Shown here one piece after another: positions 16,620 through 16,775 of a DNA stretch of 39,831 nt. Source of the DNA: a virus (taxonomy: Duplodnaviria; Heunggongvirae; Uroviricota; Caudoviricetes); IMG/VR virus record IMGVR_UViG_2802429220_000013; one strand, written 5' to 3'. Position numbers and translations under genes: made by a program. Position 1 is the stretch's first letter, and each line of letters begins with the position of its first letter. The notes under the pieces are model-generated. The model did no database searches and was not told the origin of the DNA. It saw nothing but the letters and a program-made list of their open reading frames with translations.

Positions 16620-16694
16620 GGGTCAGTCGTATAAAGGTCATTACGGAAGGCTGTTAACCTTCTTATCGTGGTTCGAGTCCACGCTGTCCCGCCA
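16620..16694 (+). tRNA. Phage-encoded tRNA, anticodon GUU (Asn-like), with one mismatch in the acceptor stem
   Basis: 75 nt folds as a cloverleaf: D-loop with GG, anticodon loop cuGUUaa, T-loop TTCGAGT, 3' CCA encoded; acceptor pair 4:69 is T-T. Confidence 0.5.
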
Positions 16695-16699
16695 AATAT

Positions 16700-16775
16700 G
16701 CTGGTTTAGCTCCAATGGTAGAGCAGTCGCCTTGTAAGCGAATGGGTAGCGGTTCAAGTCCGTTAACCAGCACCA
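16700..16775 (+). tRNA. Phage-encoded tRNA-Thr (anticodon UGU)
   Basis: 76 nt; perfect 7-bp acceptor stem gctggtt/aaccagc, D-arm TAGCTC…GGTAGAGC, anticodon loop cuUGUaa, T-loop TTCAAGT, CCA encoded. Confidence 0.7.

Follow-up and report, generated by a model that had tools for sequence, protein, structure and literature searches.

Between the late antiterminator gene Q and the holin gene S of a prophage, the 39,831-nucleotide stretch of DNA analysed here (hereafter the window; IMG/VR virus record IMGVR_UViG_2802429220_000013) has two tRNA genes. They are best explained as two intact phage genes that form a tRNA-Asn(GUU)-tRNA-Thr(UGU) cassette of the phage 21 type, located first in the late operon of a P22-like prophage, where it would supply isoacceptors that evade tRNA nucleases together with additional capacity to decode the rare codon ACA; we give this reading a probability of about 0.75. 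The cassette as such is already known, i.e., it is the annotated tRNA-Asn/tRNA-Thr pair of the phage 21/Sf6 type. The window as a whole is an E. coli-type chromosome with a P22-like (Lederbergvirus) prophage that extends from roughly 1.8 to 38.7 kb, as judged by its P22-type virion genes, the sar RNA, and the integrase beside tRNA-Arg(CCU) (Table 1). The right end is an argW-type attachment site, as in Sf6-like phages, and the presence of the sar antisense RNA implies that the prophage has a P22-type immI (ant) region.

Table 1. Position of the features of the window that are considered in the text.
Feature	Position	Strand	Remarks
227-aa ORF with Nmad5 (nucleotide modification associated domain 5)	7509-8192	-	E 2e-71; just downstream of the N antiterminator gene
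Q, late antiterminator gene, phage 21 allele (Q21)	16040-16528	+	Pfam PF06530 Phage_antitermQ, E 1e-24; phage 21 L003 1558-2046
pR'21 -35 (predicted)	16535-16540	+	Transferred from the phage 21 annotation
Q-binding element (predicted)	16543-16558	+	Transferred from the phage 21 annotation
pR'21 -10 (predicted)	16558-16563	+	Transferred from the phage 21 annotation
Transcription start of pR'21 (predicted)	16570	+	Transferred from the phage 21 annotation
Sigma-dependent pause element (predicted)	16571-16577	+	Transferred from the phage 21 annotation
tR'21 intrinsic terminator	16572-16619	+	Hairpin 16572-16610, T-run 16609-16615, then ATTT; annotated in phage 21 and Sf6
tRNA-Asn(GUU)	16620-16694	+	75 nt, CCA encoded; ARAGORN; Rfam RF00005, 55.3 bits
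Inter-tRNA spacer AATAT	16695-16699	+	5 nt; U at -1 of tRNA-Thr; read from the sequence
tRNA-Thr(UGU)	16700-16775	+	76 nt, CCA encoded; ARAGORN; Rfam RF00005, 61.5 bits
Long conserved hairpin just 3' of tRNA-Thr	16783-16832	+	-27.7 kcal/mol, z -5.1
Second hairpin	16862-16896	+	Fold 16862-16891, then UUUU; homologue of the lambda element upstream of S
S	17017-17340	+	ORF; lambda-type lysis cassette (17017-18264), the first protein genes of the late operon
R	17324-17800	+	ORF; lambda-type lysis cassette
Rz	17797-18264	+	ORF; lambda-type lysis cassette
Rz1	18017-18223	+	ORF; lambda-type lysis cassette
sar antisense RNA	34478-34545	-	Rfam, 92 bits
397-aa ORF in the integrase position	37430-38623	-	Adjoins tRNA-Arg(CCU)
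tRNA-Arg(CCU)	38749-38823	-	63 bits; right end of the prophage

Three tRNAs were called by ARAGORN in the whole window, two of them at this site and both on the plus strand. The Rfam model RF00005 detects the same two genes, with window-wide E-values of 2e-9 for tRNA-Asn and 4e-11 for tRNA-Thr, and with scores well above the gathering score of 29 bits. These results agree with a preliminary description of this DNA that had proposed two phage tRNA genes following a tR'-type terminator, and had suggested covariance-model scores as a check; nevertheless, the order of the genes given there was reversed, since it is the tRNA-Asn gene that adjoins the terminator and tRNA-Thr is the second. The T-T mismatch noticed in the acceptor stem of the tRNA with a GUU anticodon corresponds to U4·U69 of tRNA-Asn, which has another mismatch, U13·U22, in the D stem. 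On the other hand, its 5-bp anticodon stem is perfect, and the tertiary nucleotides U8, A14, G18G19, U33, T54-Psi55-C56 and A58 are all kept. Its GUU anticodon and its G73 discriminator are the known determinants for AsnRS. The cloverleaf of tRNA-Thr, previously regarded as perfect, shows a G27·A43 mismatch at the top of the anticodon stem, next to a U28-A42 pair, and C14 in place of the usual A14; the remaining conserved tertiary nucleotides are kept. A permissive Rfam scan of positions 16400-17100 revealed no further RNA families at E<=1.

The region that precedes the cassette is practically that of phage 21. Positions 15983-16620 share 99.7% identity with the phage 21 genome (OL657228.1) across Q, pR', the Q-binding element and tR', and this allowed the coordinates to be transferred directly (window = L003 + 14482); the functions are those assigned by the authors of that record, annotated from experiments. 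The tR'21 hairpin has a predicted free energy of -20.2 kcal/mol with a z score of -4.18, and none of 200 shuffled sequences was as stable. It had been stated that a tRNA begins immediately past the T-run and that its 5' processing was for this reason uncertain. The first statement is nearly correct, given that G16620 lies four bases beyond the T-run, but the tRNA in question is tRNA-Asn and not tRNA-Thr. Both tRNAs (starting at 16620 and 16700) have a U at position -1. Bacterial RNase P favours U at this position, and therefore the adjacency of the terminator is no obstacle to 5' processing.

From this arrangement, a mode of expression can be proposed. Transcription from pR'21 would start at 16570, and without Q the transcript would end at tR'21 after approximately 46-50 nt; RNA polymerase modified by Q21 would read through tR'21, so that tRNAs, lysis genes and virion genes would be expressed together. 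Cuts by RNase P at G16620 and G16700 would follow, and exonucleases would trim the 3' ends to the encoded CCA. A consensus scan of positions 16226-17400 detected no separate sigma-70-like promoter for the tRNAs, a negative result that is weak because the scan also overlooks pR'21; its sole promoter-like match (16196-16225) lies within the Q gene. The most likely mode would be Q-dependent co-transcription with the late operon. Regarding related phages, the pair of phage BTP1 is 99.4% identical to that of the window, and both of its tRNA genes seem, from the way the BTP1 RNA-seq paper is worded, to belong to the prophage features with more than 100 TPM; according to the phage L paper, whether the late mRNA releases such tRNAs is not known. 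A late, Q-dependent timing may be too late to act against a defence that is triggered early, and this counts against the nuclease-evasion reading.

The preliminary description was right in locating the tRNAs between Q and S, since Q ends at 16528 and the lambda-type holin gene starts at 17017, and also in reporting that no toxin gene is present: the 241 bp from 16776 to 17016 were searched and contain neither a toxin gene nor any plus-strand ORF of at least 50 aa, and the two minus-strand ORFs that overlap this region are spurious. The names holin, endolysin and spanin used for the lysis genes come from the Sf6 and E. coli annotations of homologous DNA. An alignment with lambda indicates that the tRNA pair stands in place of approximately 160 nt of the lambda sequence, from the end of the tR' T-run to AACTGAGCCGTAGCC; the homology with lambda restarts at 16777, and no tRNA remnants were found in the lambda segment that the cassette replaces. 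The long hairpin that follows tRNA-Thr is common to lambda and phage 21; the phage 21 copy has U7 after it, a run that is absent from the window. The second hairpin shows a single U·C mismatch when aligned to the lambda copy. The hairpin and U7 after tRNA-Thr in phage 21 are likely to be a terminator that closes the tRNA unit, and the tRNAs of the window appear to be bracketed by tandem terminator-like elements, i.e., tR'21 and the two downstream hairpins predicted from the sequence. With such an arrangement, leakage through tR'21 in the lysogen might yield a tRNA precursor without mRNA for the lysis genes. Further downstream, an Rfam match to the int-alpA RNA was observed at 18709-18771 on the plus strand (45 bits; gathering score, 35.8), in the interval from the lysis genes to the small terminase region, where one would not expect an RNA that takes its name from integrase and alpA loci.

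The slot between Q and S is also, as had been pointed out, the place where Stx phages carry tRNAs and toxin genes. In the Stx2c phage 2851, the same Q21 allele is followed in this slot by Ile-Arg-Arg tRNAs and then by stx2c, whereas the window has other tRNAs and no toxin gene. A closer comparison can be made with phage 21 (OL657228.1; CPT_21_64 and CPT_21_65), which has the same two tRNAs and likewise leaves 4 nt between the T-run and tRNA-Asn. The spacer between its tRNA genes is AACAT, a variant also found in other phages, versus AATAT in the window; moreover, past the hairpin and U7, phage 21 has the S21 pinholin and a SAR endolysin where the window has lambda-type sequence and the S, R and Rz genes. 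Phage 21 belongs to the genus Jouyvirus, in contrast with the P22-like prophage of the window. Sf6 (AF547987) is also P22-like (Lederbergvirus); its tRNAs, labelled in its record as 'similar to phage 21', are identical to those of the window, and from the terminator through S both sequences share 98% identity. However, the Q gene and promoter of Sf6 are a diverged allele, and therefore the DNA similarity with the window starts only at approximately 16571.

Each of the two tRNA genes of the window is 100% identical to its counterpart in phage 21 and Sf6, and the complete pair of 156 nt is 100% identical in HK446, mEp506, Kapi1 and Bas106. The pair was found in 61 phage records (Escherichia, Salmonella, Shigella and Klebsiella phages) and in 369 of the 5426 complete E. 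coli genomes; the RefSeq records among the E. coli matches listed give the genes the names tRNA-Asn and tRNA-Thr. Neither tRNA is annotated in the two HK446 records (JQ086372.1 and NC_019714.1); nonetheless, the Asn and Thr pair is present there at 35097-35252 with 100% identity. In IMG/VR, 17 loci carry the cassette, and all of them (17/17) show the junction TTTTTT(T)ATTT followed by GGGTCAG. Three different late-control regions precede the cassette in these loci: the Q21 promoter, an Sf6-type promoter with the tR'21 hairpin, and a lambda-type 6S terminator; behind all three promoter/terminator types the cassette is nearly invariant. A closely related prophage of E. coli APEC O2-211, located at the same chromosomal site (L007, 18145-19435) has a different, larger Q allele, with 667 bp between Q and the same holin gene and no annotated tRNA. 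This arrangement indicates that the cassette is gained or lost together with the late-control module.

The function of the tRNA-Thr gene can be deduced from recent studies on tRNA nucleases of P2 phages and P4 satellites. It was shown that the Old protein of P2 kills through cuts at paired CNG motifs in the anticodon stem of the host tRNA-Thr(UGU), and that cells are rescued by phage tRNAs-Thr(UGU) (PMC12445682). The tRNA-Thr(UGU) of phage 21 (tRNAThr21) protects against P2 Old and is largely resistant in vitro; resistance requires a shortened anticodon stem together with altered CNG motifs, and accordingly tRNAThr21 has a shorter stem and the C28U/G42A changes (PMC12445682). The identity of tRNAThr21 with the gene of the window was established from the phage 21 genome record. 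Likewise, the Thr(UGU) tRNA of HK446 was reported to be a strong counter-defence against Old, although in the same study the escape of HK446 from Old was ascribed mainly to a protein inhibitor, Oad2, and another reason was suggested for the tRNA; a single tRNA was stated for HK446, and Thr(UGU) tRNAs by themselves failed to save lambda or recB-deficient cells from Old (bioRxiv 10.64898/2026.07.10.737580). The rescue experiments relied on plasmid promoters. Hence, the anti-Old function of the tRNA-Thr of the window is documented through the identical phage 21/HK446 sequence, and the doubt that had been raised about the functionality of the tRNAs is largely settled for tRNA-Thr. The reported rescue of cells or phages from P2 Old by the identical sequence implies that tRNA-Thr decodes ACA; for other phage tRNAs-Thr, there is direct evidence that ACA decoding is restored (PMC12445682).

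A second nuclease, AriB of the PARIS system, depletes the host tRNAs Lys(UUU), Thr(UGU) and Asn(GUU), with a cut after position 40 (40|41) in the sequence U36AAU39C40; in tRNA-Lys, the change of U39 to A abolishes cleavage by AriB and the change of U16 to C impairs it (PMC12409363). The Lys, Thr and Asn tRNAs of phage T5 jointly neutralise PARIS (PMC12409363). Old also cuts the host tRNA-Asn(GUU), more slowly than ThrU. Thr(UGU) is the prime target of Old and a prime target of AriB, and Asn(GUU) is a secondary target of AriB and a slower substrate of Old. The two anticodons of the cassette are two of the three main targets of AriB; for a pair drawn at random from approximately 40 this would occur in 3 of 780 cases (about 0.4%), a figure that was calculated post hoc and takes no account of the general bias of phage tRNAs.

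When the anticodon arms are compared with those of the host (Table 2), the tRNA-Thr of the window has no CNG motif on either strand and carries G39, G41 and A16, and tRNA-Asn, which also lacks CNG motifs, carries C39, U41 and A16; at position 16 the host tRNAs have U. All the determinants of AriB and Old that were checked (positions 39, 41 and 16, both CNG motifs, and the 27-43 pair of tRNA-Thr) differ from those of the host. In contrast, the anticodons, the anticodon loops and the discriminator bases are as in E. coli thrU and asnT, and tRNA-Thr keeps G1-C72 and C2-G71. The G27·A43 mismatch and the U28-A42 pair of tRNA-Thr are, as read from its sequence, the features that were reported to confer resistance to Old. 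By itself, the loss of CNG or U39 is weak evidence because a diverged tRNA would show such a loss by default. The phage tRNA-Asn shares 44 of its 75 positions with that of the host; the identity for tRNA-Thr is also well under 100%.

Table 2. Anticodon arms of the host and window tRNAs.
tRNA	Positions 36-41	Positions 28-30	Positions 40-42	Anticodon stem
Host thrU	UAAUCA	CUG	CAG	5 bp, perfect
Window Thr	UAAGCG	UCG	CGA	27-43 unpaired
Host asnT	UAAUCC	CGG	CCG	5 bp, G27·U43 wobble
Window Asn	UAACCU	AAG	CUU	5 bp, perfect

These features have a parallel in lytic phages. The Lys, Thr and Asn tRNAs that T5 uses against PARIS, and the Thr tRNAs of T4, Bas32 and Bas33 that act against Old, carry the anticodons of the targeted host tRNAs, as the pair of the window does. 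The resistant tRNAs of these phages replace the degraded host tRNA and have altered determinants in the anticodon stem, where U39 or CNG has been lost or the stem has been shortened; T5 Thr and Asn, in particular, likewise lack U39 and the paired CNG motifs. However, they come from unrelated lineages and belong to large arrays of virulent phages that have promoters of their own, whereas the cassette of the window consists of two genes in a temperate phage, apparently without a promoter of its own. On these grounds, a counter-defence role of tRNA-Thr against PARIS, and of tRNA-Asn against either nuclease, is only a plausible extrapolation, consistent with the sequences. In its full form, the proposal would be that tRNA-Asn(GUU) is a second nuclease-resistant tRNA, and that the cassette is a compact, mobile, two-tRNA countermeasure to the Toprim tRNases of P2 phages and P4 satellites (AriB and Old), swapped behind at least three types of late promoter in temperate enterobacterial phages; we put this forward tentatively, at somewhat less than even odds. 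In the reading that we prefer, the tRNAs would provide isoacceptors for ACA and AAC/AAU whose anticodon arms are unlike those of the host at the positions recognized by these Toprim nucleases, so that late translation would continue when the host tRNA-Thr(UGU) and, more slowly, tRNA-Asn(GUU) are destroyed.

The tRNAs would also add decoding capacity for the rare codon ACA, which is heavily used by the phage. Using one greedy ORF caller on every sequence, the prophage of the window has 16.7-17.9 ACA per 1000 codons (30-31% of the Thr codons) and 49-50 Asn codons per 1000; the values for a 50-kb sample of MG1655 are 5.3 ACA per 1000 (10% of the Thr codons) and 38 Asn codons per 1000, and for P22, which has no tRNAs, 13 and 48-54 per 1000, respectively. 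The enrichment in these codons that the preliminary description had proposed to look for is therefore present with respect to MG1655 (approximately threefold for ACA, together with an increase in Asn codons), but it is similar in P22, and for this reason ACA enrichment does not decide between hypotheses. The high demand for ACA helps to account for the effectiveness of ThrU as a target and for the benefit of an extra tRNA.

Codon usage is also the basis of the strongest alternative, according to which the pair has no role in defence evasion and serves only to improve the reading of ACA and AAC/AAU codons when the highly expressed late proteins are made. In favour of this idea, both ACA and Asn codons are more common in the prophage than in the MG1655 sample, the host tRNA-ThrU has been described as being of low abundance, and supplementation has been proposed for the Asn tRNA in the phage L paper. 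Nevertheless, P22 sustains a similar usage of ACA and Asn codons without tRNAs; the Thr tRNA identical to that of the window resists Old, and extra host ThrU gives no protection; and the anticodon arms depart from the host copies precisely at the determinants of the nucleases. Moreover, E. coli K-12 has four Asn tRNA genes, which makes it unlikely that the supply of this tRNA is limiting. Taken together, pure supplementation seems improbable, albeit deserving of some weight. It should be noted that P22 and many of its relatives lack these tRNAs despite a similar codon usage, and this also counts against the nuclease-evasion and ACA-capacity reading that we prefer.

The variants of the cassette bear on a different possibility, namely that the Asn gene is a decaying passenger, a non-functional remnant kept by its adjacency to the Thr gene and to the terminator. 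The mismatches U4·U69 and U13·U22 could be taken as signs of decay, and in the single variant of the Asn gene found in IMG/VR (L025) the D stem is weakened further. In relatives, the adjacent second tRNA also looks degenerate. Phage L carries in this slot the Asn tRNA and an odd 72-nt 'Leu' tRNA; this second tRNA of the phage L/ST64T type, annotated as Leu(UAA) (L131, 481-552), has the acceptor, D and T arms of Thr21. Its anticodon arm is rearranged, and it may derive from the Thr gene through degeneration or a change of specificity. In JLK-2012 the slot is linked to Q21 and contains Asn, a chimeric Thr and Gly(UCC), as it also does in L053; the first 26 nt of the chimeric Thr (L132, 1581-1656) are those of Thr21 and the remainder is thrU-like, its anticodon stem is reduced to 3 bp, and CAU stands in place of its 3' CNG. 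ARAGORN calls neither the 'Leu' tRNA nor the chimeric Thr. The Gly(UCC) tRNA was named as a target of Old in the 2026 preprint (bioRxiv 10.64898/2026.07.10.737580), and Klebsiella phages fill the slot with Thr and Phe tRNAs. In contrast with what would be expected from a remnant, the Asn gene is identical in 16 of the 17 IMG/VR copies and across the three promoter contexts; it keeps U8, A14, G18G19, U33, the T-loop, G73, the GUU anticodon and CCA, and scores 55 bits with Rfam; and the host Asn(GUU) is a documented nuclease target. Consequently, decay of the Asn gene is quite unlikely.

Regarding covariation, a scan of IMG/VR with a degenerate Asn pattern gave mostly unrelated Asn tRNAs; the test is uninformative because only 17 loci are available and the Asn gene is almost clonal (16 identical copies and one variant). 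In the tRNA-Thr of locus L125 (4222-4297), a compensatory change of G5-C68 to U5-A68 was observed together with a change of G19 to A; this is the only double-sided change in a nearly clonal family.

Finally, that the tRNAs provide self-immunity against a tRNA nuclease encoded by the same prophage is most improbable: prophage-encoded anticodon nucleases do exist, such as HepS of Gifsy-1, which cuts Thr tRNAs, but the accessory ORFs that were scanned gave no hit in PADLOC and none of a nuclease-like kind in Pfam or PHROG (one of them contains Nmad5), and the same cassette is present in very different phages, i.e., the siphovirus 21, the podovirus Sf6 and Stx-type phages. When the accessory ORFs of the early region were compared with Pfam, PADLOC and PHROGs, the scans revealed neither a tRNA nuclease nor a RecBCD inhibitor, which is a possible trigger of Old, and the readings that invoke self-immunity or an Old trigger were set aside.

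As a discovery, the cassette is a minor one, given that annotations of its genes already exist for phage 21, Sf6, BTP1 and hundreds of E. coli genomes in RefSeq, and that the anti-Old role of tRNA-Thr is published. What is useful is the idea that tRNA-Asn(GUU), which was overlooked in the HK446 records and in the 2026 preprint on Old, acts as the partner of tRNA-Thr. If this is true, tRNA-Asn would be the missing partner that extends protection to nucleases of the PARIS type, and the tRNA pairs of temperate phages would represent a defined counter-defence module rather than a decoration related to codon usage.
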